From NCBI RefSeq assembly GCF_024700885.2, contig NZ_CP117016.1: a stretch of 64,000 bases of DNA. The stretch is one strand, 5' to 3'. This DNA is from Escherichia coli. Its GTDB lineage: Bacteria > Pseudomonadota > Gammaproteobacteria > Enterobacterales > Enterobacteriaceae. Shown here piece after piece: positions 35,716 to 48,124 of this stretch. Every line of letters starts with the position of its first letter. The first letter of the stretch is position 1. A program made the position numbers and the translations under genes. The notes under the pieces were generated by a model. The model did no database searches, had not been told where the DNA came from, and saw only the letters and a list, made by a program, of their open reading frames with translations.

Positions 35716-36011
35716 CAGTACACCCCCACATCACGGTAAGCCGTCCAGAGTGCGCCTATCGTCATGGGTACGCGTGTTTTTGCGTTATCCGCGACAATCT
35801 GGCGATTTTCATACAGGTGAGCGATAAACATCATGCAGCCAATCTTTATGGCTGGCGTGAACTCCAGCCCGTCATCAAAGCGCCTGCCTATGTGTATCTG
35901 GCACGCCTCAAGCGATGCGGCAATGTATCCGCTGATTAACTGGTCTTCATCGTCGCCATCGATGCGGCAATGGAGTTTCACTTCTTCCAGGGTGATAAGT
36001 TCTTCTGTCAT
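35715..36011 (-). CDS. gp6-like head-tail connector protein
   Basis: 98 aa. MTEELITLEEVKLHCRIDGDDEDQLISGYIAAS is the typical Phage_connect_1 N-terminus. ATGA overlap with the upstream gene. Confidence 0.75.
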   Translation of the reverse strand: MTEELITLEEVKLHCRIDGDDEDQLISGYIAASLEACQIHIGRRFDDGLEFTPAIKIGCMMFIAHLYENRQIVADNAKTRVPMTIGALWTAYRDVGVY

Positions 36012-36346
36012 TTTTCCGCGCCCTCACGACAAAGAATTTCAAGGCGTGTCCTGGCGGCATCCGGCAGCGGCTGCCCGATGATATTCAGTACACGCCCCGC
36101 CAGCGGCCCCGTACTGACCTTTATCCGGCTGGTGGCGTTGATGTCCTTCCGGTACCGTATCCAGATCCTTACGGTACCAATCGCCAGCTCTGCGCCCGAT
36201 GAAATGGCCTCCTTGCTGCTGACCATGTTCACGCTTGCCCAGAGTGTGTGACCGTCCTCCCACGTTTCGAGTATTTCGCCGGTTATATCCCTGGTCTGTT
36301 TCAGGGTCTGAATCGTTATCCTGTCACGCAGTCGCCCTATGTTCAT
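36008..36346 (-). CDS. Head-closure / head-tail adaptor protein (SPP1 gp16-like)
   Basis: The start was set at MNIGRLRDRITIQ (ATG 36346, ATGA overlap with the portal stop), giving 112 aa. Confidence 0.7.
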   Translation of the reverse strand: MNIGRLRDRITIQTLKQTRDITGEILETWEDGHTLWASVNMVSSKEAISSGAELAIGTVRIWIRYRKDINATSRIKVSTGPLAGRVLNIIGQPLPDAARTRLEILCREGAEK

Positions 36347-37554
36347 TCCGGTTTTTCTCCCTCGCTGATTTTTACTTCCTGTTTCCATGCCTGGCTGAAC
36401 TCATCACCACCATCACGCGGTGACAGACCTTCACGTTCGCGGGCTTCGTTCGGACACATAACGCCGGATTTGATGCCGCGCTCATAGGTGGCAAAGCGTT
36501 CGCCAGGTGTGGCCCGTAACAGGTCCGCGCTGTCAAACTCCACCTGATACCGGATACCAGGTACAGGCGAGGCCACCAGCAGGGCGTTTTTTATCTGCTG
36601 CTCAAAGTTCGCCAGCCACGGGCGCATCGTCATGGTGAGAAATGCGCGGCTTGCCTCGCTGAAATTGCTGTAGGTGCTGTTGCTGTATTCCTGCAAAAAA
36701 ATCGGCGAGACGTTGAACATTCGGGCGATGTCTTCAATGGTGAAGCGACGGGAGGCCAGCCATTCAGCATCCTGATTACTCATGCCCAGCTGCTGATAGC
36801 TCATACCCCCTTCAAGGATGGGCGTTTTTCCGGCGTTTCTGGCCCCTTTGTAGCGTTCCAGTGCGGCTAATGCCTGTTTGCCCTTCACGCCGTCCAGCCA
36901 TTCGCCTGACGTGATAACCCCTGCCGCCATCATGCCATCACGCATCACGCTCGCGCCGTGGCGTTGTTGGGCCAGCCCAAGCCCCAGCGATTCGCGGCAG
37001 ATGGTTACAGGTGAGCACCCCATAAAGCCGTCATCCGTGGAGTAACGAAGGTGAAGTACTTCCCACGGTAAATAGTTGCGGGTGTTTCCGGTGTAGGCGT
37101 CAGTGATGCAGTAGCGCCAGTTGTGTTCGCCTGTCTGCTCCACGTTCACCGACTGCGGCGGGTAAGGATGTAAAGCCGCCGGAAAACCATCACGCCCCCA
37201 CTGAATCACCGCATAAGCATTACCGTTTAACAGGCAGTGGCGGATCATCATTCGCTTAAACTGGTAGGGGGTTTGCCATGCGTTCGGGCGCTCGTTGAGG
37301 ATGTGATCGACCGGATGAGAATCAAGCCACTCGCGGGCCTCCTTCCCCTTCTCATTGCGTACCAGGTACAGGTAACACGGCATGGTAGCCACCGCCTCAG
37401 AGATGACCGTCACGGCGTTCATGACGGCGGGCAGTGATTCCGCTGTCCCCGATGATACGTACTCACCCGCCCCCGTGTTCGATGTGCCAGCCAGCGCCAT
37501 AAATTCATCCAGCGTCATGCTGCGCTGCTCTTTTTTTCTTCTGAAAGGCCACAT
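36343..37554 (-). CDS. Portal protein, HK97 family
   Basis: 403 aa, recognised by family-typical sequence and position. SD gggggtg. Confidence 0.85.
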   Translation of the reverse strand: MWPFRRKKEQRSMTLDEFMALAGTSNTGAGEYVSSGTAESLPAVMNAVTVISEAVATMPCYLYLVRNEKGKEAREWLDSHPVDHILNERPNAWQTPYQFKRMMIRHCLLNGNAYAVIQWGRDGFPAALHPYPPQSVNVEQTGEHNWRYCITDAYTGNTRNYLPWEVLHLRYSTDDGFMGCSPVTICRESLGLGLAQQRHGASVMRDGMMAAGVITSGEWLDGVKGKQALAALERYKGARNAGKTPILEGGMSYQQLGMSNQDAEWLASRRFTIEDIARMFNVSPIFLQEYSNSTYSNFSEASRAFLTMTMRPWLANFEQQIKNALLVASPVPGIRYQVEFDSADLLRATPGERFATYERGIKSGVMCPNEAREREGLSPRDGGDEFSQAWKQEVKISEGEKPE

Positions 37555-37555
37555 A

Positions 37556-38128
37556 TCACACCCCCGCTAAATCCACCCACCAGCGGCGATTATCCGCACG
37601 CGGCATTTTTTCGGGGTGCTGCTCATACAGGGAACGGCGGGCCAGCTCCACGCCGGAATCGGGGTAAGCCGGTACCGATGTAACGGTAATTTCGTACAGT
37701 TCCGCCACCAGCACGGTGCGCACGCATGGATCTGTTGTGGTATCCCATACATCCTTACGGGAGCGAAAGCCAAAGCTCATCCCCGAGATGTCCCCACGCT
37801 TAACCAGTTCGATAACGTCGCGCCCTGTACTGGTATCCGGTGGGGTCAGTTCAAAGCGTAACCCTGTTTCGTCCTCTTCCAGTTTCAGCGTGCCGGAACG
37901 GGTGCGCCCCAGTAACATGCTGTGGTCATGCTCATACAGGCCGCGAACGTCATTACCCGCCGCAAGCCACTCAGTAAACGCCCCCCGCTGGAATTTTTCG
38001 TAAAACTCCCCCCATAGCAGTTCTGAAAGCTTATCCCAGCGAACAACGTAGCCCGTCAGCGTACCGGCTCCGCTGGTAGTGATTTCCGATGACCGGATTT
38101 CCATACTCTTCATAATTTTTTCACCCAT
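37556..38128 (-). CDS. Prohead serine protease, HK97 (S78) family
   Basis: 190 aa (start may be 38113). EHD...LLGR and GMSFGF motifs are present. Confidence 0.85.
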   Translation of the reverse strand: MGEKIMKSMEIRSSEITTSGAGTLTGYVVRWDKLSELLWGEFYEKFQRGAFTEWLAAGNDVRGLYEHDHSMLLGRTRSGTLKLEEDETGLRFELTPPDTSTGRDVIELVKRGDISGMSFGFRSRKDVWDTTTDPCVRTVLVAELYEITVTSVPAYPDSGVELARRSLYEQHPEKMPRADNRRWWVDLAGV

Positions 38129-38137
38129 AAAACACTA

Positions 38138-38157
38138 AAGGGGCTTTTAAGCCCCTT
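38138..38157 (-). terminator. Hairpin between capsid and protease genes (possible attenuator)
   Basis: Stem aaggggctt/aagcccctt, followed on the minus strand by ttagtgtttt. Confidence 0.4.
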
Positions 38158-38167
38158 CTGTATGCTG

Positions 38168-39325
38168 TTAATCGTCGTCCTGTGGCAGTTCCAGAATCTT
38201 GATCGCGTTCGAATCCACCACGCCACCGCCTAAATATTTCTGCGTGAAAATTTTGATGAAGCCCGGCTCTGTGAGGTTGTCCGGTCTGGTGCGAACACCT
38301 GTTTCGTGATCAACAATGTAGTAACCGCGTTTGAAGTCACCCAGGGCAATAACGTTATCCGGCATAAACTCCAGATATTCGACCGGAAGGCCCAGTAACG
38401 TATCAGGATCACCCGCCTGTAAACGGTCGCGCCAGATGTAATCACCGTTCGCGTTCTTCACCTTCTGAAGTTTTGCCGCCGTCGTGGAGTTAACCACCCA
38501 GACCGCGTTTTTGCGGTATTTTTTACGTAATGCAAATTTCAGGTCGATCAGCGGGTCCGCAGATGTCCACGCCAGAGATTCGGAAGGTTTAATTACCTGC
38601 AACGTACCAAAATCACGCTCTTTGTCGTTCTTCTCTGCACGGGGTACGGATAAAAAGCCTTTTGCTTTTTTGTCACCGTCGCCCACAACCAGATCGCTTT
38701 CTTCGGTTTCCGTGAAGTTGTCGCCAATCTCGCCCGTCAGCCATGAAAGGATGTCCACATCGGAAAAATCCACGATTTCCTGCGTGGTGCGCGGGTACGC
38801 ATAGACCGGATACAGCTTAATGCTCACCTCGTTAATCTGCGGGGTGCTGGTCTGTTCGCGTGCCTTACCCTCTTCACCGTGGTTAACGGTCGCACCGCCA
38901 GCGGAAACAAGCTGCTTAAACTCGTTGCTGCTGATTTTCTTCACGGTACAGATGCGGCGCATGGTGGATTCATCCGTCAGCATTCGCATGATTTCGGTGT
39001 TCAGTTCGGGGATAACGGTATAACCACCATCAGCGGGAACGCCTGTACTTAATGCGCGGGTTTCACCTGTCAGAATGTAGTGACGTAGTTCGGCTGGGTC
39101 AGTGGTCTGACTGCTTTTACCTGGCTTGCTGCGCTCTTCGTCTGCAATGGCTTCAAGGCGGGAAATGTCTTTATCGAGGGATTCAGCTTTAGCGCGTAAT
39201 TCGTCAAATTTTGCGCCCTCAGCATCGTTAAGACTGCGGTTTTCTTTTTCCGCGTTCTCCAGCATGTCGCGCATCTGATTTTTAATGGCGGTTTTCTGCT
39301 GGCGTAATTCGATTATTCTCGGCAT
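38168..39325 (-). CDS. Major capsid protein, HK97 fold, with N-terminal delta/scaffold-like coiled coil
   Basis: 385 aa with a charged helical N-terminus (about 100 aa) followed by an HK97-family capsid body. Confidence 0.88.
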   Translation of the reverse strand: MPRIIELRQQKTAIKNQMRDMLENAEKENRSLNDAEGAKFDELRAKAESLDKDISRLEAIADEERSKPGKSSQTTDPAELRHYILTGETRALSTGVPADGGYTVIPELNTEIMRMLTDESTMRRICTVKKISSNEFKQLVSAGGATVNHGEEGKAREQTSTPQINEVSIKLYPVYAYPRTTQEIVDFSDVDILSWLTGEIGDNFTETEESDLVVGDGDKKAKGFLSVPRAEKNDKERDFGTLQVIKPSESLAWTSADPLIDLKFALRKKYRKNAVWVVNSTTAAKLQKVKNANGDYIWRDRLQAGDPDTLLGLPVEYLEFMPDNVIALGDFKRGYYIVDHETGVRTRPDNLTEPGFIKIFTQKYLGGGVVDSNAIKILELPQDDD

Positions 39326-39539
39326 AAAAAAAGTCCTGGGGTTAAGTAAGGAACTCCAGGACGCGGCAAAAACTCAACCGTTTTTCATAAGGAAATCAGC
39401 AATCGCACCGATCGTTTTCCCGCCTGGTAATGAATATTGGCGAGAACATTAACAGGCGGAAAAGTGGCCCCAGCGTCCTGGCACCACGGGCGAGAATAAT
39501 CATGATTCAGTTCGGGTAAAATATGCCGATCCGCTCAGT

Positions 39540-39565
39540 GAACAACGTGGAACAACCACGAACAA
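39540..39565 (+). repeat. Three GAACAA units at exact 10-bp spacing upstream of the capsid operon
   Basis: GAACAA at 39540, 39550 and 39560. Confidence 0.8.
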
Positions 39566-39583
39566 ATAATTTACAAAACATGA

Positions 39584-39606
39584 CAAAAAGCCGGATTGCT
39601 CCGGCT
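39584..39606 (-). terminator. Rho-independent terminator ending the early/replication operon
   Basis: The minus strand reads agccggagcaatccggct + ttttgt, immediately after the stop at 39613. Confidence 0.7.
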
Positions 39607-39612
39607 GTGTGA

Positions 39613-39894
39613 TTATCTGTCCTGGTAATTTCGCCATATTTCATTACCAGCACCATCCATACCCATTTCGGCATAAGTGCGATCGACCGCCTTTTTCAGG
39701 TCTCCGTAGTTATCCGGCGGCTCCGGTGGCCTCTGTGCCTTCCTGGAACATTCCAGCCGTCGCATCGTGATGTGATGCCGTTCCTTGTCTGTCTCCACCA
39801 GTTGCATGACTTCACCCCATCGCGCCGACGCTCTCCGGTAAAAGCCTTTCGCCTCCAGTTCTTCCGCTATGCGGTCATGTACCATCGTCCCCAC
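39613..39894 (-). CDS. PerC-like transcriptional activator (candidate)
   Basis: 93 aa. IAEELEAKGFYRRASARWGEVM matches the (L/F)(W/Y)RRAxxRWxEV motif I recall for the PerC/Pch family. Not verified by search. Confidence 0.5.
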   Translation of the reverse strand: MGTMVHDRIAEELEAKGFYRRASARWGEVMQLVETDKERHHITMRRLECSRKAQRPPEPPDNYGDLKKAVDRTYAEMGMDGAGNEIWRNYQDR

Positions 39895-39897
39895 CCC

Positions 39898-40308
39898 TCA
39901 GAACGGAATATCATCACCGTAAGGGTCATCGCCTCCCGCTGGTGGCTGATTACCCTGTGTGCCTGTGGTCTTGCGTCGGCTCCCACCAGGACGTGCCGCA
40001 CGGGCACTGATTACGCTGTCTGCAATAACCTGATAACCCTGCCGCGTTTCCCCGTTCTGTCCGGTCCACTGGCTGACCTGCATCGTGCCGGATACGCTGG
40101 CAACGTCGCCTTTTTGATGTTTAGCCAGGAAGTCGGCCTGCTTACCAAATGCGATGACCGATAGCCATAACGTCGCCTGTCCATCCTGTGCCTGGCTGCA
40201 TGGCAGCGATACCGCCATACGCGCCAGCGTCATCGGTGTACCCTTGCTGGTCTGTTTTACCTGCGGGTCGTCCACCAGCCGCCCGTAAGCTGCTATCTGT
40301 GCTGTCAT
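39898..40308 (-). CDS. ssb: Single-stranded DNA-binding protein
   Basis: 136 aa with an OB-fold N-terminus, a Gly/Pro-rich linker and the acidic tip DDIPF. Confidence 0.88.
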   Translation of the reverse strand: MTAQIAAYGRLVDDPQVKQTSKGTPMTLARMAVSLPCSQAQDGQATLWLSVIAFGKQADFLAKHQKGDVASVSGTMQVSQWTGQNGETRQGYQVIADSVISARAARPGGSRRKTTGTQGNQPPAGGDDPYGDDIPF

Positions 40309-40583
40309 GATTCCACCTCTCCGGTTTTAACGTTGATGGTTGTTACCTGTTCCGCTTCGGCAATCTCCCGCTCTGTCAGCGTGGCAAAATTTGCCGCCGT
40401 CGTGGTCATGAATGCGCTTATCAGTTTGGGATGTGCTTTCGCGTATCCTTCCCCCGCGTGGCGGTCTATCGTTCTGATTGCCACCTTTAAAGCGTGCTCT
40501 GTCATGTCTAACGCGCGATATTTCGGTTCTGTTCTGTCTCTGCGTTTTTTGAGTGATTTATTAAATTTCCCTGAAGTGTGCAT
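40305..40583 (-). CDS. Hypothetical protein (92 aa)
   Basis: ATG at 40583. Its stop overlaps the ssb start (ATGA). Confidence 0.5.
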   Translation of the reverse strand: MHTSGKFNKSLKKRRDRTEPKYRALDMTEHALKVAIRTIDRHAGEGYAKAHPKLISAFMTTTAANFATLTEREIAEAEQVTTINVKTGEVES

Positions 40584-40632
40584 ATTTATTTTTACCCCCT
40601 CGTTTAAAAAGTTTTGAGTTGTGCCTCCCCTT

Positions 40633-40855
40633 GTCTACCTTATCTACCTTAGTGGCCCTCATACCAGTAATGGCGCGGCTTTCAGCGGGGTAGAGTGCTT
40701 TTATCCACTATCTACCCCGTGTCTACCTCCCTGTCTGATTCAGGTAAAATCAGGTAGAGAGGGTAGATAGTGGGTAGACAGTAAAAAAAGGTTATCTACC
40801 TAACTTAATGCACTGAATTAAATGTATTTTTCTTTACTCAGGTAGACAGGGTAGA
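40633..40855. repeat. Iteron cluster / candidate island replication origin
   Basis: 11 copies of the hexamer GGTAGA/TCTACC. TCTACC starts at 40634, 40644, 40711, 40722 and 40795. GGTAGA starts at 40689, 40753, 40762, 40773, 40841 and 40850. They flank an AT-rich stretch (40801-40840) directly downstream of the primase stop. Confidence 0.75.
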
Positions 40856-40871
40856 CAGCAATTACAAAAAA

Positions 40872-42626
40872 TTATAAAAACGCGTCGCACTCGTCTGTTG
40901 TTATTGCGTTAGTCTGCGTTACTCCCTTAACTTTCCGCGTAATATATTCATGTCCGTAAACTTTCGCGGCTGGCTTCATAGCCTTGCCAAAGTCATTTAC
41001 GTTTAGCGGTTTGCTCCTGCCTGCGTACGCCATAAACGCCAGATAGACGCGGTAAAGGCTGTTTCTGGTCGTGTACTTCACTGAATCGCCACCGCCGCCC
41101 ATCATCAGGCCGCGTGCTTCCTCCAGAAAATTCAGGAACTGGCAAAACTCAATAACCGGATCCGTCTGTTGCTTTATTGCCAGAGCTTCATCACCGTCAC
41201 GCTGTTCCAGTAGTAAAGCCCGTGCCTTCTCAGGGTCGGTAAAGTTCGCCAGCAATCGGCGGATAATGACAGGGATTTCAGCCGCGATCTTTTCCGGTAG
41301 CTCCCTGTCTTTTTCGGCCTCACTGACGATATTGTCGAAACGGAAAATCACGCGACGACGTGCCACACCTCCGGCCCGTTCGGTGAATATCATCGGGTTA
41401 TTGTTGGTCGCCAGCACCACCGCCCTGATTACCGCCGTGAAACGCTTTTCGTATTTCGGGTTAATTTCCACGGGGTCACCGCCCGTGATTTTCTTGATGC
41501 CCGTTCCTTCGCCTGTATATTTCGGCTGGTCAGCCAGGACGATAAGACGACTCCCGACAACCTGCGCACGTCCACCAGCATCATCAAGCGATGTCATTTC
41601 AGCGCTTACCGTGTTCTGTTTCCCTGCCAGAAGGCTGGCTATGTGTGTGAATGTACTTTTACCGCTCCCGCCGTCTCCGGTGGCCTCAATAAACATCTGC
41701 CAGTCGTACCGGTTCGCCATAATCATGTACAGCGCGGCACATATACGCATCATCTTGCGCGGGTCTTTTCCGGCTGCGTGCTCAAGCCATTTATGAAAGT
41801 TTGGCGCGTTATCGCGGATGTTCTCCCCTGGTGCTGGTGGCGTGTACTCAATGCCGTTGTGCGTGGTGATCCAGTTCTCCGGCGTGTGCGGGGAAAATTC
41901 CCCCGTTTTCAGGTCAAGCGCACCATTGGCGAACGGCAACAAATCGCCGGACGGCTCGCCCATTGGTTCGGCAATAACTTTTAACGCTTCCACGGCGTTA
42001 TTGATTACGCGCTTGCTGAAAGTGGCCCTGTGCTCTGAATAGATCGCCACCATTTCGCGGCTAAGTTCCATTGTGCTGACCGGACACCATACCCCGCCGC
42101 GCCATACGTGAACGATTTCACTTTCAGGATGTACGCAAACGCCATCAAAGCGATCGGCAAGCAGTTGCGCGCGCTCACTGTCCGCCATCTGCGAAAGTTG
42201 CGCCTTTTGCTTTACCGGAAGCTCAATGACCAGACCATCAGAAAGATTCTGGCGCTCACGGGCCAGATATTCGCGCCAGTTCTCCACCTTCTGACCGTGC
42301 ATACCATCAGGGTAAAAATTTGCATCCTGTACGCCTGCCGCCGCCAGCTTCTGACCAATCGCCTTTATCATTACTGGCGCAAGATATCCGGCCCTGAATA
42401 TGCGCACGGATTTTCTGCCTTCCGGCACAATTTGCAGCTTATCCAGTTCGGATAACTGCTGCTCCCCAAGCCACACAGGAGGCTCATTATCTCCGGCCAT
42501 ACGCGCGTCATGTTCCTGCCATTGTTTTGCGTGTGACCAGGCATCACTACCCGCAAAAATAATGACTTCTGTTTCTTTGTGTTTTATGCCGCGTGACTGC
42601 TGTTTTACGTTCGGTGCCAGTTTCAT
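40872..42626 (-). CDS. P4-family primase/helicase (pri-rep)
   Basis: 584 aa with Walker A GDGGSGKST and Walker B LIVLADQP. The C-terminal architecture is D5/P4-alpha-like. Confidence 0.82.
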   Translation of the reverse strand: MKLAPNVKQQSRGIKHKETEVIIFAGSDAWSHAKQWQEHDARMAGDNEPPVWLGEQQLSELDKLQIVPEGRKSVRIFRAGYLAPVMIKAIGQKLAAAGVQDANFYPDGMHGQKVENWREYLARERQNLSDGLVIELPVKQKAQLSQMADSERAQLLADRFDGVCVHPESEIVHVWRGGVWCPVSTMELSREMVAIYSEHRATFSKRVINNAVEALKVIAEPMGEPSGDLLPFANGALDLKTGEFSPHTPENWITTHNGIEYTPPAPGENIRDNAPNFHKWLEHAAGKDPRKMMRICAALYMIMANRYDWQMFIEATGDGGSGKSTFTHIASLLAGKQNTVSAEMTSLDDAGGRAQVVGSRLIVLADQPKYTGEGTGIKKITGGDPVEINPKYEKRFTAVIRAVVLATNNNPMIFTERAGGVARRRVIFRFDNIVSEAEKDRELPEKIAAEIPVIIRRLLANFTDPEKARALLLEQRDGDEALAIKQQTDPVIEFCQFLNFLEEARGLMMGGGGDSVKYTTRNSLYRVYLAFMAYAGRSKPLNVNDFGKAMKPAAKVYGHEYITRKVKGVTQTNAITTDECDAFL

Positions 42627-42922
42627 TTTTTACCCCTGAATCCGTTAATCATGGTTTTCAGCTTCTGGATGTTTGCCCGTGCCCTGGCGTTGCTGGTGGA
42701 CACGTTATGCGGCGCGGTCTGTACCAGAGAAAAATCACGCCGGAACTGATAAACAGGCATCACGCAATCATATTCGTAACCTTCACGGCGGTAGGTTACG
42801 CGCCGTTCTTCCACGCCCTTAATCATTACCGTGCCGCCGTACTGGTCGCGGTAAATATCGCCGCGCGTAAATTTAGGGTGAGTGTTGCCACTGGCAGTTA
42901 AGCCAGAATATTTAAGTTTCAT
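42623..42922 (-). CDS. Hypothetical protein (99 aa)
   Basis: SD ggaga. ATGA overlap with the primase start. Confidence 0.55.
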   Translation of the reverse strand: MKLKYSGLTASGNTHPKFTRGDIYRDQYGGTVMIKGVEERRVTYRREGYEYDCVMPVYQFRRDFSLVQTAPHNVSTSNARARANIQKLKTMINGFRGKK

Positions 42923-42927
42923 TATTT

Positions 42928-43161
42928 TTATTCTCCGGTGTGCTGTTCTTTATATCTGTCGTGCAATAGATCTATTTCTTGCAGTTCCATTATTACAGGC
43001 TCAAGAAGCGTTATTAATGCCGTGGCAATTCTTGATTTTTGTTTGTCGCGTTCATTGTCGCCAAGTGTTTCAAGCCATATGCGCAATATTTCCAGCATGT
43101 TTTCACTGTGAGAAAGTGCAAGAAATGCGCGGTCTATTGTTTCGTGGTAAATATCACGCAT
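42928..43161 (-). CDS. Hypothetical protein (77 aa)
   Basis: ATG with SD gagga. Part of the packed operon. Confidence 0.5.
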   Translation of the reverse strand: MRDIYHETIDRAFLALSHSENMLEILRIWLETLGDNERDKQKSRIATALITLLEPVIMELQEIDLLHDRYKEQHTGE

Positions 43162-43387
43162 GGCTTACATCCTCAGGAAATTTTCTTCTATAACGCGCCT
43201 CTGCCACATATTCCGCATAATCGGCGGCGATATTCAGTACATCAAGCCCCGTTGATTTATATTCTCTCGTGGAAAGTAAGAAAAAAGCCGCTCTAATAAG
43301 TTCTGGCATTGACGAAAGCGCATCAGCCGCATCATCAGGAACGCCGGAAAATTCCTGTTTCAGGGAATTAAAACGATCATCACGCAT
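43154..43387 (-). CDS. Hypothetical protein (77 aa)
   Basis: ATG with SD gggggg. It has 8-nt overlaps with both neighbouring genes. Confidence 0.5.
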   Translation of the reverse strand: MRDDRFNSLKQEFSGVPDDAADALSSMPELIRAAFFLLSTREYKSTGLDVLNIAADYAEYVAEARYRRKFPEDVSHA

Positions 43388-43745
43388 GTTTACCCCCCTG
43401 AATGACCTGATAACCGCAACTGGTCAGCAACTCGATAAATTCCGGCAGTGTGCCGAAACAGCAATCATCACGCAGCCGTTCACAGGATACCTCGACGCCG
43501 TTTTCGTAGTGACTCACCATACATCCGGTAAAATGCAGATCATCATCGTGATGGCTCGTTGACGGCTTAATCAGTCGCGCACGTTCCGCCAGTTCCAGCA
43601 ATGCTTCAACGCTTCCGGCAATTGCACCATCCGGCAGGTGATAATTACGCACTATGCGCCCGTTCTCCACATTGACCAGCAACTGCCCGGTAAATTTCTC
43701 ATCAAACTGAATGCTGTTAAGGTCAGAAATTGACAGATTATGCAT
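43380..43745 (-). CDS. Hypothetical protein (121 aa)
   Basis: The start was moved to MHNLSISDL (ATG 43745), preceded by a strong SD aggagg. Confidence 0.55.
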   Translation of the reverse strand: MHNLSISDLNSIQFDEKFTGQLLVNVENGRIVRNYHLPDGAIAGSVEALLELAERARLIKPSTSHHDDDLHFTGCMVSHYENGVEVSCERLRDDCCFGTLPEFIELLTSCGYQVIQGGKHA

Positions 43746-43962
43746 GGTGCACCTCCTGCACATCAGCCATGATAATTTTTCCGGCCTTATCCAGTGCCTG
43801 ATCGGCTTTTAGCTGCACAAATGCTAAATAATGGAAGATGCATTCTGATTCTCTGGCTGCGTGTTTATGCGCCCTGTCAGCAATAACAGAAATATCAATA
43901 AGCGCGTGCATCAGCGTAGTGAGCGCGGCGGCGGCTGCGTCCGGTGTGGTTTTATTGCACAT
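43738..43962 (-). CDS. Hypothetical protein (74 aa)
   Basis: The start was moved to MCNKTTPD (ATG 43962), preceded by SD ggagggg. Confidence 0.5.
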   Translation of the reverse strand: MCNKTTPDAAAAALTTLMHALIDISVIADRAHKHAARESECIFHYLAFVQLKADQALDKAGKIIMADVQEVHHA

Positions 43963-44182
43963 GTACCCCTCCGCATTTTTTTTCGTTAGAAATAAGCGTT
44001 CTTCTTTCCTGTTCATCGCTCAGGAATACGCAGACCTCACCGCTAAGGCGTTTAAGTAAGCCGATGATTGCCCCTGATTCGCTGTCGGTCATCATGCCAG
44101 GGTAATCCTCTGCCAGTGCGCAAATAACTTCGATTTGGTGGGCGCGTTCTGCTGCCTGTTGTAGTGTGATTTCCTGGCTCAT
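43952..44182 (-). CDS. Hypothetical protein (76 aa)
   Basis: ATGA overlap with the icd-like stop. Confidence 0.5.
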   Translation of the reverse strand: MSQEITLQQAAERAHQIEVICALAEDYPGMMTDSESGAIIGLLKRLSGEVCVFLSDEQERRTLISNEKKCGGVHVQ

Positions 44183-44379
44183 AAGCCTACCCCCTGACGA
44201 ATACGGGCAGCAAATACCATCACGCAGCCAGCCGGAGATTGCTGGCGTGCTTCCTGTTCGCTGGTGGCCTCAATGGTAATCACGCGCGGTTGTGCCGTGC
44301 TCAGGGCGATAAAACGCCAGATGTATTTATTCAGGTTGTGCGAGTCCCGCCCTTGCGGGTGTGTGGTATGATTTCTCAT
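44179..44379 (-). CDS. Icd-like host cell-division inhibitor (66 aa)
   Basis: This is the C-terminal 66 codons of the 340-aa track ORF. ATG at 44379 with SD gaggt. YIWRFIAL...ATSEQEARQ...VFAARIR resembles Icd-like proteins of P4-type elements, from memory. Confidence 0.55.
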   Translation of the reverse strand: MRNHTTHPQGRDSHNLNKYIWRFIALSTAQPRVITIEATSEQEARQQSPAGCVMVFAARIRQGVGL

Positions 44380-44475
44380 AGCTACCTCGATACTTTCGCT
44401 ATCGTTGGTGGTTAGAAGCCCGGTTAGTGTTAGCGCACTGCCGGGTTTCGTCGTTTCTGCACCTTGCGCCAACAA

Positions 44476-44529
44476 GGTGTTGAACACCAATTTAAACCCA
44501 GGTGTTAAACACGTCAAGTGTTGAACACT
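44476..44529. promoter_or_regulatory. Three operator-like 13-bp dyads (GTGTT-N-AACAC) in a divergent promoter region
   Basis: GGTGTTGAACACC 44476-88, GGTGTTAAACACG 44501-13, AGTGTTGAACACT 44517-29. A putative rightward promoter, TTGAAC(44521)-17 nt-CATACT(44544), overlaps the third dyad. Confidence 0.65.
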
Positions 44530-44578
44530 TATTTTTTTTCCTGCATACTGCATTTGTTTTTTATGAGGGGTACACCAC

Positions 44579-44758
44579 ATGGCGACAAAAGCGGTAAACG
44601 CAAAATCACAAACCGTTGCGGCAAGGGTTCCGCATGAAGTTATGAACAATGTTGAGGCGGTAAAAATGCCTGGCGAAAGTACGGGGCAATTTGTTACTGC
44701 GGCATTAAAACGAGAAGTTGAATATCGCCAGCGGCGCAAGGCCAAAGAACCAGAGTAA
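44579..44758 (+). CDS. Ribbon-helix-helix (Arc/CopG-like) DNA-binding protein, 59 aa, candidate island repressor
   Basis: Hand-translated as MATKAVNAKSQTVAARVPHEVMNNVEAVKMPGESTGQFVTAALKREVEYRQRRKAKEPE*. SD gagggg. It has a beta-strand-helix-helix pattern. It is below the ORF-track cutoff and is one of only two plus-strand genes in the island. Confidence 0.5.
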   Translation: MATKAVNAKSQTVAARVPHEVMNNVEAVKMPGESTGQFVTAALKREVEYRQRRKAKEPE

Positions 44759-44800
44759 TCACCATCAGCGCCGTGGTGTAAGGTATTACGGCGCATTGCT

Positions 44801-44989
44801 ATGCAGGACAACACAATGACCGATAAAGAATTGACCAAAACATTATCACCGGCACGGAAAAGACGGCGCAGAAAGATAGAGCATGAATCAGAAAGATTCG
44901 CGCCATGTGCTTTTGCCCTTGAGCAATTCCTTAAAGAGTACAGGGAAAAGCGCTCATTGCAGGTATGGCAACGAACTGAACCAGACTGA
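44801..44989 (+). CDS. Hypothetical basic protein (57-62 aa)
   Basis: Downstream of the RHH gene and before the plus-strand terminator. Contains an ARKRRRRK stretch. The start may be 44816. Confidence 0.4.
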   Translation: MQDNTMTDKELTKTLSPARKRRRRKIEHESERFAPCAFALEQFLKEYREKRSLQVWQRTEPD

Positions 44990-45084
44990 TTGCATTGCCC
45001 ACCAGCCTGATAACGGCTATCATCCCCGTGCTTATGTTTGGGATCACACACACAAACGGCGCAGCGGGTTATCTGTTCAGAAAG

Positions 45085-45112
45085 GCGGCTCCATTTCGGG
45101 GCCGCTTTTTTT
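45085..45112 (+). terminator. Rho-independent terminator of the rightward RHH unit
   Basis: Stem gcggctcc/ggggccgc (8 bp, one G-U pair) followed by 7 T. Confidence 0.7.
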
Positions 45113-45258
45113 ATACCTGAAAAACCCCAATTTTGTTGTTTTTCAGTTTCACCAGGGCGAACGAATCCCCGCCCACGTTCTGGCGTATATTCAATCTTCA
45201 TGGTTATAGCTCTGTGTTCAGATGATTGATGTGTGGCGGCTGCGTGCCGCCAGCGTGA

Positions 45259-45447
45259 TTAATGAACTGCCTTGCAGCTATCCTTCCAGGCCAGAACCTC
45301 GGATAAAGACCAGCCAACGGAACGACCGCCAAGTTTACGACGTGATGGGAATTGTCCGGCCTTTTCCAGGCGGTAGCGACACGTACGGCTAAGGCCGGTT
45401 AGTTTTTCGCATTCTTTTTCACGTATAAACCGATCAGTGCTTAACAC
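45259..45447 (-). CDS. alpA: AlpA-family regulator / excisionase-type HTH
   Basis: FIREKECEKLTGLSRTCRYRLEKAGQFPSRRKLGGRSVGWSLSEVLAW is the typical AlpA/Phage_AlpA motif. The favoured start is the GTG at 45447, 5 nt after SD aagggggg. The track ORF extends to a TTG at 45528. Confidence 0.8.
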   Translation of the reverse strand: MLSTDRFIREKECEKLTGLSRTCRYRLEKAGQFPSRRKLGGRSVGWSLSEVLAWKDSCKAVH

Positions 45448-45720
45448 TATTGCCCCCCTTTCGTTTCTTAAAGAGTCATCAGGTGTCTTATTGTGTCGTA
45501 TTGTTCCCGCTAGAGTGATGAATGGCAAATACTGAGGATGTATGATTTACAGAAAATGAAACAGTAAGAATAAAATTTTTTAAATTCATGTTAATACAAA
45601 GGCATAAAATATTGTTCCATGCCTTTTTTCTCGCTCTTTAAAGAGTGATTCGCTAGTGTACAAAAAACCAGTAACGCATTAAAAATCAGCTACTTATAAA
45701 TCCGTACGCTTTTTCGCCTC

Positions 45721-45765
45721 TTGTTCGTAGTTGTTCCACATTGTTGCTCATTGTTGCACGTTGTA
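45721..45765 (-). repeat. Five TTGTT/TTGTA units at exact 10-bp spacing (inverse orientation of the GAACAA arrays), int-alpA intergenic
   Basis: Units start at 45721, 45731, 45741, 45751 and 45761. Confidence 0.8.
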
Positions 45766-45812
45766 TCTGTTCGCATATCCAGTATGCGCATACTGAAAAA
45801 ACACGAAAAAAA

Positions 45813-47042
45813 TTATTTTCTTCTGGCTACGGGTAGCGTGGTTACGTTTTCATGTGTTCCCGCCAGTATCCCTAACCGCTCCGTCCACATATCCAGCGCA
45901 TTGCGTTTCGCATCCAGATAACGGGAATGATTATAAACTCGCTGCATTCCTGGCATCTGGTGGCCTGTAAGCTGCTCCACGACATGCGGATCAACGCCTA
46001 AATCGTTCAGCATGGTTGTAAAGGTGCGCCGGATGTCATGCAGTGACCAGTGAGGGTGATTAAGCCTCCTGTACGCTAATCTTCCATACTGCGATACGCT
46101 GGCCTCCTGTTTCACTTCCCCCAGCAATAAGCCCGTGTGCCTGTTCTGCTCCACCAGCTGCGTGACGAACGGCAGGATCGCTTCCGGTATGGGCCGGAAT
46201 ATTGCGACCTTCGTTTTGCTGTGCTCCTTCGGAACGGTCCATAGCATTTCCGTAAAATCCCACTCCCCGATCTCCGATAACCTCAGTTCTACCGTTCTGG
46301 CTCCGAAGACAATCAGGAGGCGGATTAACGCGACGTAGTAAGGGGAGAATATTTTTTTGTCCAGTGCCTGCAATAATTCGCCAAGTTCTTTGTTACTTAA
46401 GACACGTTCGCTTATATCCGGTTTTTTCCCAACGTCCGCAACGTTCAGATCGTCCAGAACGTTGCTGATTGCATAGCGCCGCCTACGGCAGAACTTAAGC
46501 GCCTGTTTGCACGCCTGTAGCACGAATCCGGCAGTAACAGGCGTTCGCTTTGCCACCTGGTCAAAACAGGCCAGCCAGTGCCGTAGCTCGCATTTATCCA
46601 GCGGCATAGCACCAATCTGCTGTATTACGTGATTATTAAGTCGCCTTTTCAGGGCGATATAATCCACGCGGTTTTCCTTTACGTAATACTCAAGCCAGTA
46701 GGTGAGCGCATCGCCAACCGTTACGGGCTTTAACGCTTCCTGTACGGTGTAATTCATCTCATGACGTGGATTTTTCCCCTCAGCCAGCCATGTGCGACAC
46801 TGTGCGGCTTTTTCCCTGGCTGCTTTCAGGCTCAGATCAGGATAACTTCCCAGCTTAATGCGTTCGGGTCGTGTCTCCCTTCCCGTTCCGGCCCTGTATG
46901 TGAAATACCAGGTCAATTTCCCTGATGTTAAATATTTCACGCTCAGGTTTCCGCCATCACTATAAAACGTGTTTTTCTCCGCTGGCTTACCATGAAGTTT
47001 CCTTAGCAAGGTATCGCTCAGTTTGTTCATTGCTCTGCTCAC
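45813..47042 (-). CDS. int: P4-type tyrosine integrase (DUF4102 arm-binding N-terminus + catalytic core)
   Basis: 409 aa, with either a GTG at 47042 or an ATG at 47030 (MNKLSDTLLRKL). The N-terminus is GKLTWYFTYR...LGSYPDLSLKAAR. Catalytic motifs HDIRRT and Y in VYNHSRY are present. Confidence 0.9.
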   Translation of the reverse strand: MSRAMNKLSDTLLRKLHGKPAEKNTFYSDGGNLSVKYLTSGKLTWYFTYRAGTGRETRPERIKLGSYPDLSLKAAREKAAQCRTWLAEGKNPRHEMNYTVQEALKPVTVGDALTYWLEYYVKENRVDYIALKRRLNNHVIQQIGAMPLDKCELRHWLACFDQVAKRTPVTAGFVLQACKQALKFCRRRRYAISNVLDDLNVADVGKKPDISERVLSNKELGELLQALDKKIFSPYYVALIRLLIVFGARTVELRLSEIGEWDFTEMLWTVPKEHSKTKVAIFRPIPEAILPFVTQLVEQNRHTGLLLGEVKQEASVSQYGRLAYRRLNHPHWSLHDIRRTFTTMLNDLGVDPHVVEQLTGHQMPGMQRVYNHSRYLDAKRNALDMWTERLGILAGTHENVTTLPVARRK

Positions 47043-47067
47043 GTTTTACCCCCTCTTTACGAAAAAG

Positions 47068-47090
47068 TGACTACACCAGTGACTACACCG
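47068..47090 (+). repeat. 23-bp arm repeat TGACTACACCAGTGACTACACCG (right arm)
   Basis: Perfect copy of 32038..32060, in the same orientation. Confidence 0.85.
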
Positions 47091-47108
47091 ATCGTTGCAC
47101 AAAGGGCT

Positions 47109-47132
47109 ACAACGTGAAACAAGCTGGAACAA
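47109..47132 (+). repeat. 10-bp-phased ACAA array, right arm (3 units, a 4th at +12)
   Basis: ACAA at 47109, 47119 and 47129, and another at 47141. Confidence 0.7.
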
Positions 47133-47217
47133 GGAAAATCACAAATCTATTGATAATCAAAAACATAATGCACAGCCTGAAACATTATGAAACAGCAAAA
47201 AACACTAAATGATAAAA

Positions 47218-47226
47218 TGCTGTTAT
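47218..47226. repeat. att core copy (integrase-proximal junction; I call it attR by window position)
   Basis: TGCTGTTAT, identical to 31955..31963. Confidence 0.85.
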
Positions 47227-48124
47227 TCTTAACCCGCTGGTGCAACACATGGTCCGCTGGCGTGTGCCGCGTGTACTGGCAGTGTCGATTTTGATGACCA
47301 TCATCGTGATGGCGATGGTGTTGCTGTTAGCTTATCTGGGTTCCGCACTCAACGAGTTGACGCGGACGTTACCGCAATATCGCAACTCTATTATGACGCC
47401 GCTGCAAGCTCTTGAACCGTTGTTGCAACGCGTAGGGATTGACGTCTCAGTTGACCAACTGGCGCATTACATTGATCCGAACGCGGCGATGACGTTGCTC
47501 ACCAACTTATTGACGCAGTTATCTAATGCCATGTCATCAATCTTTTTATTGCTGCTGACGGTGCTGTTTATGCTGCTCGAAGTGCCACAATTGCCCGGAA
47601 AATTTCAGCAAATGATGGCGCGTCCGGTTGAAGGGATGGCGGCGATTCAGCGTGCGATTGACAGTGTGTCTCATTATCTGGTGCTGAAAACAGCCATCAG
47701 CATCATCACCGGCCTGGTCGCCTGGGCGATGCTCGCCGCACTCGATGTTCGCTTCGCTTTTGTCTGGGGATTGCTGGCCTTTGCGCTTAATTACATCCCG
47801 AATATTGGTTCAGTTCTCGCGGCAATCCCCCCTATTGCTCAGGTACTGGTGTTTAATGGCTTCTACGAAGCGTTGCTGGTGCTGGCGGGATATCTGCTGA
47901 TTAATCTGGTCTTCGGCAATATTCTGGAGCCACGCATCATGGGGCGTGGGCTGGGGCTTTCCACATTGGTGGTATTTTTGTCGTTGATTTTTTGGGGATG
48001 GTTGTTAGGACCGGTGGGTATGCTGCTTTCCGTGCCGTTGACAATTATTGTCAAAATTGCGCTTGAACAAACAGCGGGAGGTCAAAGCATCGCCGTTCTG
48101 TTAAGCGATCTCAATAAAGAGTGA
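47218..48124 (+). pseudogene. tqsA: tqsA 3' fragment (codons ~44-344)
   Basis: The frame continues (A)[21 protein letters not shown]...LSDLNKE*. An in-frame TAA lies at 47213-15 just upstream, so there is no island-provided N-terminus. Confidence 0.9.

Follow-up and report, generated by a model that had tools for sequence, protein, structure and literature searches.

A predicted layered immunity switch of a capsid-forming PICI-like satellite in Escherichia coli, located between its alpA gene and early operon

Introduction

In Gram-positive phage-inducible chromosomal islands (PICIs), the gene of the Stl/Rpr repressor is divergent from the replication operon of the island, and the Stl repressors are large helix-turn-helix proteins that are inactivated by helper proteins (PMC6092414). 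For Gram-negative PICIs the global repressor has been called unclear; AlpA is an activator induced by helper phages, which raise alpA transcription in the prototype island EcCICFT073, and over-expression of AlpA without phage suffices there for excision and replication (PMC6092414). In later work AlpA figures as the sole master regulator. Here, we analysed computationally a stretch of 64,000 nucleotides (nt) of the Escherichia coli chromosome (assembly GCF_024700885.2, contig NZ_CP117016.1; hereafter the window), focusing on a control region in which a leftward early operon, running from an icd-like gene to a primase gene, is separated by three short dyads from a rightward unit that encodes a 59-amino-acid (aa) ribbon-helix-helix (RHH) protein. 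We consider it quite likely that this locus is a layered immunity switch of a P4-lineage satellite, combining repression by the RHH protein, an antisense RNA, and a bypass by read-through along a frame that resembles eta of P4.

The immI region of phage P22 carries two RHH repressors, Arc and Mnt, the divergent promoters Pant and Pmnt, and the sar antisense RNA. The window resembles it in having a small RHH protein with putative operators in overlapping divergent promoters, and a short predicted antisense RNA over the ribosome site of the downstream gene. It differs in having one RHH gene where P22 has two, in its target operon, which serves satellite replication and morphogenesis and not an antirepressor, and in the nesting of the cassette within an antisense open frame; no sequence relationship is detectable. 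The immI region of phage P1 comprises the c4 antisense RNA, icd and ant, and c4 RNA, a product of the same transcript, has repeated target sites on which it acts in trans. As in P1, an Icd-family gene is the first translated gene of the operon in the window and its translation would be gated by a small RNA, but C4 itself was not matched there. The SymE/SymR pair of E. coli K-12 (PMC1891008) offers a similar layering, with a protein repressor at the promoter and an antisense RNA, and SymR was the sole Rfam family that we matched, repeatedly, at the homologous place; the target in the window is of the Icd/Kil type and not SymE, and its setting is the early operon of a satellite.

In P4, an open frame (8821-8168) overlaps the stop of vis(orf88), and its last 65 codons are Kil. 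According to those passages of a published account that draw on Forti 1999 (PMC10111431), the promoter PLE lies inside eta, its transcripts are terminated via pairing of CI and seqA RNA, and translation of eta from the upstream late promoter prevents this termination. The same article reports that some PICIs have a 'Bro zone' containing C4/isrK immunity RNAs (PMC10111431).

The RHH protein and its putative operators

A reading made from the letters of the window alone (the sequence-only reading) had recognised the 59-aa open reading frame (ORF) as an RHH protein, and this is borne out by structure prediction. The AlphaFold2 model has an extended N-terminus followed by two helices (predicted local distance difference test, pLDDT, 82.5), Arc is among its structural matches, and the N-terminal beta-strand, two helices and short turn of the G-x-S/T type are those of the RHH superfamily; the protein is thus predicted to have the RHH fold. 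That reading had also taken the gene to be unannotated. In fact RefSeq names the product WP_000201461.1, 'YlcI/YnfO family protein', and it scores 59.7 bits (E 2e-16) against the NCBIfam model NF041551, for which the cut-off is 30. Homologues across Enterobacterales all begin with an invariant MATxxxNxKS and have R16, H19 and a G-E-S turn in common; their residues 11-15 vary. A profile search of the sequences in the Protein Data Bank gave no match, and Pfam has no family for the RHH protein, for the second gene of the rightward unit (ORF2) or for the long minus-strand frame described below. Among 50,697 phage records searched with tblastn, there was no relative of ORF2 and one of the RHH protein, in an 'induced prophage' of 16.5 kb, itself a probable satellite. 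The literature that we searched holds no link between RHH or YlcI/YnfO proteins and PICI control, and mentions YlcI/YnfO solely as an accessory 'prophage-associated protein' (PMC13612085).

The three dyads, O1 to O3 (Table 1), start at 44476, 44501 and 44517, where the sequence-only reading had put them, between the early operon and the rightward unit. They are the only exact GTGTTNAACAC matches in the window and all lie inside 52 bp, against a chance expectation of about 0.06 matches by our own arithmetic. When up to one mismatch was allowed, five sites were observed against a mean of 1.96 in shuffled sequence. We then compared about 25 related loci (denoted by L numbers) from Pectobacterium, Dryocola, Yokenella, Xenorhabdus, Klebsiella, Edwardsiella, Salmonella and E. 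coli. Every locus with a YlcI-type gene carries a single kind of 11-13-bp site three or four times, at about -102, -77 and -32 relative to the RHH ATG, and a site at -61, the position of O3, is limited to the GTGTTnAACAC class (the window, L020, L025 and L032). The outer GTG...CAC is constant and the central 5 bp vary between loci in step with RHH residues 11-15, giving at least seven classes: QT[VIL]AA with GTGTTnAACAC, Q[SA]LK[SA] with GTGTGGCCCAC, [KR]KLEA with GTGTCAGCCAC, KRFDV with GTGTCGGACAC, KKIDV with GTGTCTGACAC, QS[VL]TA with GTGTAAGACAC, and QALRA with GTGTAGACCAC. The rule drawn from the first loci correctly predicted the operators in two loci fetched later, L025 from Klebsiella and L032 from a P4-like element of E. 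coli. This concerted change with the beta-strand residues upholds the earlier suggestion that the dyads are RHH operators, and the RHH protein very probably reads them and represses the leftward promoter.

Pairwise comparisons delimit the part that changes. EcCICFT073 carries the same RHH/operator module, and its ORF2 and two of its early-operon proteins are identical to those of the window, while the RHH class and the operators differ. The window and L030 agree in the left flank and in the RHH C-terminal half, and differ in the operators and the N-terminal half; the specificity cassette would therefore comprise helix 1 and the strand together with the operators. Loci of class 1 from E. coli, Klebsiella and Edwardsiella have a near-invariant operator-promoter block and a drifting RHH coding sequence. 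In an O157:H7 island, GGTAATTACC dyads and an Arc-like RHH protein of 57 aa stand in place of the YlcI-type gene; the operators are unrelated to those of the window, although the AlpA protein (WP_000953272.1) is identical. Searches of 5426 complete E. coli genomes found the cassette of the GTGTTnAACAC class (query 44460-44760) in 486 of them and the wider region that includes the icd-like gene and the RNA (query 44150-45250) in 1679. Homology breaks off at about 44480, 44796 and 45007 in these searches, which is consistent with cassette exchange.

The Arc-like gene (MSTPLEKRSPPYQMRLPEDF...) is the one to which the description 'unannotated' does apply. It lies at 3325-3498 of L021 (NZ_CP040107), an O157:H7 island next to roxA that is probably of the EcCIEDL933 type, and at 4237-4410 of L022; both loci have two (A/G)TGGTAATTACCATG dyads, and at this position the NCBI annotation pipeline PGAP gives a pseudo 'Icd-like' gene on the opposite strand and nothing else.

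Predicted divergent promoters overlapped by the dyads

A consensus scan predicted a leftward early promoter, P_L, whose start site, spacer and -35 element coincide with or adjoin the three dyads. Its -35 element, [CT]GTCAA, stands at -67 from the RHH ATG in 19 of 22 YlcI-type loci (counting one at -66 and two at -68); L002 is without it and L017 has a leftward -35 at -52. On the other strand, a predicted promoter P_R of the RHH unit takes its -35 from O3, and all related loci have a -10 of the form TAnnnT at the same place. With operators on both divergent promoters, the geometry is most naturally read as repression at P_L together with autoregulation at P_R, and we infer both on that basis. 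The rightward unit ends in an intrinsic terminator that is strong on the plus strand and weak on the minus strand (-15.7 kcal/mol, z -1.2), in agreement with the clean terminator that had been noticed there.

An inverted repeat, CACCTTG-N6-CAAGGTG, abuts O1 and may form a 5' hairpin on the P_L transcript; its stem is retained with a different loop in EcCICFT073 and in some other loci. On the minus strand at 45437-45447, GTGTTAAGCAC differs by one mismatch from the operator pattern and falls exactly at the GTG start of alpA. We considered it as a fourth operator and set it aside: other loci have no extra sites, and L021 has the same alpA sequence next to unrelated operators, so that a coding coincidence is probable.

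A predicted cis-antisense RNA over the icd-like leader

In a permissive Rfam scan of 12 kb, the sole match was SymR, on the plus strand at 44380-44452 (33.3 bits, E 0.0036). SymR was also matched at the homologous place in L025 (41.1 bits), L030 (32.4), L020 (30.3) and L006 (28.5). These scores of 28-41 bits stay below the gathering threshold of 61 bits (RF01809), so that the RNA has a SymR-like layout and is outside SymR by the standard of Rfam. The predicted RNA, of about 80 nt, is fully complementary to the icd-like leader including its Shine-Dalgarno sequence, and an extended -10 of the form TGnTAnnnT, conserved in the alignment, is correctly spaced upstream of it.

An alignment of 16 loci supports two hairpins with 24 pairs, 12 of which show compensatory changes. 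On the plus strand 95.3% of the cells pair, a value reached by none of 500 shuffles; read on the minus strand the figure is 81%, because 55 cells are G-U on the plus strand. The predicted fold is likewise stronger on the plus strand (-35.1 kcal/mol, z -4.45) than on the minus strand (-20.5 kcal/mol, z -1.35), and a U-rich run follows hairpin 2 on the plus strand only. A covariance model found one copy in the window and matched loci that had been left out of its building; P4 and the loci with a first gene other than icd-like gave no match. Overall, the region probably encodes an antisense RNA.

A maintained open frame from alpA into the icd-like gene

Antisense to the control region, the RHH gene, ORF2 and the terminator runs a 340-codon frame in phase with the icd-like gene. 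Over 879 nt it has no stops, as compared with 21 and 15 in the other two frames, and the alpA stop codon lies in the same frame. By codon resampling of the plus-strand proteins and intergenic shuffling, the chance of such an open frame in the window is about 5e-6. Three plus-strand genes of L022 are crossed by the frame, which stays open there for 1562 nt. Of the frames antisense to the RHH gene, f1, whose wobble positions coincide with those of the gene, is free of stops in all 20 loci compared, with a chance of 0.2-0.45 in each, and f0, otherwise the frame likeliest to be open, is open in none of the 20. In L003 and L017 the long frame begins with a good Shine-Dalgarno sequence and an ATGA overlap with a preceding bro/rha-like gene. 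The possibility that it encodes a folded protein, considered in view of a pseudo call by PGAP, was rejected: the sequence is unconserved, domainless and rich in cysteine, serine and arginine, and its apparent motifs are antisense translations of terminators. From these comparisons it reads as a maintained open frame and not as a folded protein. PGAP places a pseudo 'Icd-like' gene on the minus strand over the rightward unit.

The corresponding frame of EcCICFT073 (L024 7767-9053, alpA strand) has 428 codons and a sub-threshold Bro-N remnant at residues 52-91; the window frame has neither a Bro-N remnant nor a Phage_ASH domain. We speculate that the original annotation of the EcCICFT073 frame on the same strand may explain why the divergent RHH gene was overlooked.

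The backbone of this arrangement is that of P4. In both, an AlpA-family gene is followed by a long frame that starts from its stop and ends as an Icd-like/Kil protein of 65-66 aa, and then by an operon leading to the primase; P4 Kil matches the same Icd-like model, NF033153, as the window protein (E 1.6e-21), and this protein is likewise the first early gene. The early promoter is internal to the long frame in both, P_L being the analogue of PLE. The two systems differ in the immunity factor, which in P4 is a processed sense-strand RNA (Rfam C4, with isrK/c4-a1b1 targets); the window has instead a gene for a protein repressor and its operators on the opposite strand inside the frame, plus the predicted cis-antisense RNA. 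They also differ in that the N-terminal part of P4 Eta is an Ash domain (Phage_ASH). Searches for C4, isrK and c4-a1b1 RNAs with E up to 1 found none at 36000-48000 of the window or in 15 related RHH loci, and under identical settings P4 yielded all three families, so a P4-type CI RNA is not detected here. Given the shared backbone and the lack of a C4-type match, the window has the appearance of a P4-type left operon whose CI-RNA immunity was exchanged for the RHH cassette and the cis-antisense RNA.

The proposed switch and its alternatives

In the switch that we propose, RHH dimers would occupy the start site of P_L (O1), its spacer and -35 (O2) and the sequence abutting the -35 (O3) and so shut off this promoter, which would otherwise drive the operon from icd-like (kil) through to the primase, and O3, by covering the -35 of the RHH gene's own promoter, would give autoregulation. 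The RNA of about 80 nt, starting from the extended -10 within the first icd-like codons, would block translation of the first gene and so lead to premature termination of escaping transcripts, by analogy with SymR/symE, P1 c4/icd and P4 CI/kil. A helper phage would turn on the alpA promoter, and transcription coupled to translation of the frame would then cross the cassette into the early operon, bypassing the repressor and the antisense RNA and probably also interfering with their promoters. Translation of the long frame would prevent Rho-dependent termination, as argued from the maintenance of the frame and the P4 precedent (PMC10111431). The classes of operator and beta-strand would correspond to heteroimmunity types. 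The open frame from alpA into the icd-like gene, together with induction of EcCICFT073 by AlpA alone (PMC6092414), points to a bypass from upstream; that helper-activated upstream transcription, rather than anti-repression, is the route past the repressor is a proposal we hold to be evenly poised. Antitermination by AlpA, as in Pseudomonas aeruginosa, where the protein reads DNA via residues 128-142 and has an N-terminal ring (PMC9371919), was set aside as such a route, because the island AlpA has only 62 aa and the mechanism is not simply transferable.

Several observations weigh against the proposed switch. The promoters are predictions from consensus matches. The sigma70-like rightward promoter had been placed over the third dyad by the sequence-only reading, and here the TTGAAC inside O3 and the conserved -10 stand, but the match to the consensus is weak (8 of 12 positions, below the threshold of the scanner). 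The window lacks the -32 operator that most loci have. The operators adjoin the N-terminal half of the RHH gene, so that part of the covariation is linkage; since all sites of a locus change together, linkage alone is an insufficient explanation. The SymR scores are below threshold, six of about 20 loci have stops in the intergenic part of the long frame, and a domain search of its product recognised none. Finally, as AlpA alone induces EcCICFT073 (PMC6092414), the repressor is no absolute block.

The same sub-threshold Rfam match, broken frames and missing domain could also be read to mean that the hairpins are a leader structure of the leftward mRNA, an attenuator or stabiliser, and the long frame a by-product with no function, the more so as the leader folds on the minus strand too. 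We regard this as improbable. The 55 G-U cells of the plus strand are A-C mismatches on the minus strand, with 95% against 81% pairing; the z scores of the two folds differ in the same direction; a conserved TGnTAnnnT stands at the right distance; and a U-rich tail comes after hairpin 2 on the plus strand only. A by-product would have to account for an open frame of the low chance probability given above, for its length in L022 and for the ATGA-coupled starts. It is also conceivable that AlpA, or a host or helper protein, reads the dyads and that the RHH protein has an unrelated role, since the match of RHH protein and dyads is a comparative one and E. coli AlpA, a DNA-binding protein, is encoded 500 bp away. 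This is very improbable, given that the identical AlpA stands beside unrelated operators in the window and L021, and that all the sites of a locus shift with the RHH beta-strand while the flanking genes are constant. In addition, half-sites centred about 6 bp apart in a 13-bp dyad suit one beta-ribbon in one major groove and not a helix-turn-helix dimer, as is established for RHH structures.

The sequence-only reading had likened the region to Stl or to a phage immunity region, and had named the RHH protein as the likely target of helper-phage anti-repression. The second likeness is apt, and the first holds for the repressor gene divergent from the replication operon and the operators on the early promoter; the diversity of RHH classes could also reflect an arms race with helper proteins. 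That a helper protein binds and removes the RHH protein as an Stl-like master repressor is nevertheless unlikely in our judgement. The repressor is a 59-aa RHH protein, not a large one of the Stl kind, and its cassette lies antisense in a frame of the P4 eta/kil type, whose conservation from alpA to icd argues for upstream read-through. In EcCICFT073, which has the same module, helpers raise alpA transcription and AlpA over-expression alone is enough (PMC6092414). Moreover, the variable residues are those of the DNA-reading strand and change with the operators, a signature of immunity specificity and not of escape from a protein inducer. The alternative floated there, a small type II toxin-antitoxin pair of the RHH protein and ORF2 autoregulated via the dyads, has fared worse and is highly unlikely. 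ORF2 is absent from most RHH loci (Xenorhabdus, Edwardsiella and L032 among them), its slot elsewhere holding unrelated genes, and it pairs with two unrelated RHH types. The RHH protein, at 59 aa, has no C-terminal toxin-binding part, and ORF2, a 57-aa helical hairpin, matched no toxin-antitoxin or defence family in PADLOC or Pfam. Known partner toxins are larger than ORF2, and it is the core of the divergent early promoter that the operators occupy.

The layered switch, with its RHH repressor, antisense RNA and eta-like bypass, would belong to a general type already known from P4, P22 immI and SymER, newly combined in a form that is present in prototype PICIs. P_L, the antisense RNA and the open frame had no place in the sequence-only reading. 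The predicted repressor, operators and antisense RNA lie between alpA and the early operon in EcCICFT073 and in 9-31% of complete E. coli genomes, and together they probably keep the island silent, which would fill a gap in the control of Gram-negative islands. If the proposal is true, quiescence and superinfection immunity of the islands become directly testable, immunity types can be predicted from sequence, engineered PICI 'drones' could take account of the module, the YlcI/YnfO family gains a function, and the locus clearly exemplifies a gene cassette that lies antisense within a frame kept solely for translation. More broadly, and only tentatively, we suggest that many Gram-negative PICIs, capsid-forming PICIs (cf-PICIs) and P4-like satellites carry an interchangeable RHH-operator cassette, of at least seven classes, and a cis-antisense RNA nested in an eta-like 'transit' frame that selection holds stop-free although no protein is conserved, and that helper-activated, translation-coupled read-through from the alpA side meets the repressor gene head-on and both bypasses and silences this immunity.

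ORF2, the island and further features

ORF2 is limited to E. coli and Shigella and is a real gene because it has an invariant ERFAPCxFxL..LK core and in-frame indels. It is found behind either YlcI-type or Arc-like RHH genes, and where it is missing the slot is either empty or occupied by unrelated genes. The 57-62-aa, highly basic protein of the sequence-only reading is best read as 57 aa; it is basic (isoelectric point 9.9, net charge about +4.6), though not extremely so. Its AlphaFold2 model is a helical hairpin (pLDDT 71) that is too uninformative for a fold search.

The island is inserted in tqsA and adjoins pntAB. Annotation was read from a region of strain CFSAN061761 that is 100% identical to the window. 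Several small minus-strand genes lie between icd-like and the primase gene, and beyond the latter follow, on the same strand, ssb, perC and then HK97-type capsid, protease, portal and connector genes. With int, alpA and primase in the same direction and its own capsid, protease, portal and connector genes, the gene order is that of the published cf-PICI layout (bioRxiv 10.1101/2022.09.08.507074) and also matches EcCICFT073; on annotation and layout the island is a capsid-forming PICI-like satellite.

Table 1. Features of the control region and its surroundings (positions in the window)
Feature	Position	Strand	Basis or remark
Operator O1, GGTGTTGAACACC	44476-44488		Centred on predicted P_L start site; kept at about -102 from RHH ATG in related loci
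Operator O2, GGTGTTAAACACG	44501-44513		In P_L spacer, 2 nt into -35; -77 in all YlcI-type loci
Operator O3, AGTGTTGAACACT	44517-44529		Abuts P_L -35, holds P_R -35 TTGAAC
Predicted leftward early promoter P_L	44489-44517	-	Consensus scan: -35 TTGACG 44517-44512, 17-nt spacer, -10 TAAATT 44494-44489
Predicted rightward promoter P_R of RHH unit	44521-44549	+	TTGAAC 44521-44526, 17-nt spacer, CATACT 44544-44549
Inverted repeat CACCTTG-N6-CAAGGTG	44460-44479		Read from sequence; abuts O1
Predicted antisense-RNA promoter, extended -10 TGgTATGAT	44364-44372	+	Read from sequence; inside first icd-like codons
Predicted cis-antisense RNA, about 80 nt, two hairpins	44380-44459	+	Rfam SymR similarity, covariation, fold; U-rich tail after second hairpin
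59-aa RHH protein, YlcI/YnfO family, putative immunity repressor	44579-44758	+	GAGGGG Shine-Dalgarno 8 nt upstream
ORF2, 57-aa basic two-helix protein	44816-44989	+	ATG 44816, AGGA 7 nt upstream; phrog_21027 E 1.6e-15
Intrinsic terminator of rightward unit	about 45079-45113	+	Hairpin and U-run; -25.4 kcal/mol, z -3.7
340-codon open frame, eta-like layout, in phase with icd-like	44179-45201	-	Open up to alpA stop 45259-45261; first ATG 45201
icd-like gene, 66 aa, first of early operon, family homologue of P4 kil	44179-44379	-	NCBIfam NF033153 E 1.4e-19
Primase	40872-42626	-	RefSeq annotation
alpA, 62 aa, GTG start per PGAP	45259-45447	-	Annotation; Pfam Phage_AlpA E 1.5e-16
int	45813-47042	-	RefSeq annotation of identical region

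Two minor observations concern neighbouring parts of these islands. The Rfam int-alpA RNA motif (RF02996) was not detected in the int-alpA spacer of the window; it lies between int and alpA in L002 (6853-6921), L003 (6893-6961) and L029 (4045-4114). In the early operon, a small gene at 8018-8238 of L001, which comes from the strain identical to the window, equivalent to about 43167-43387 of the window, is marked as frameshifted by RefSeq.

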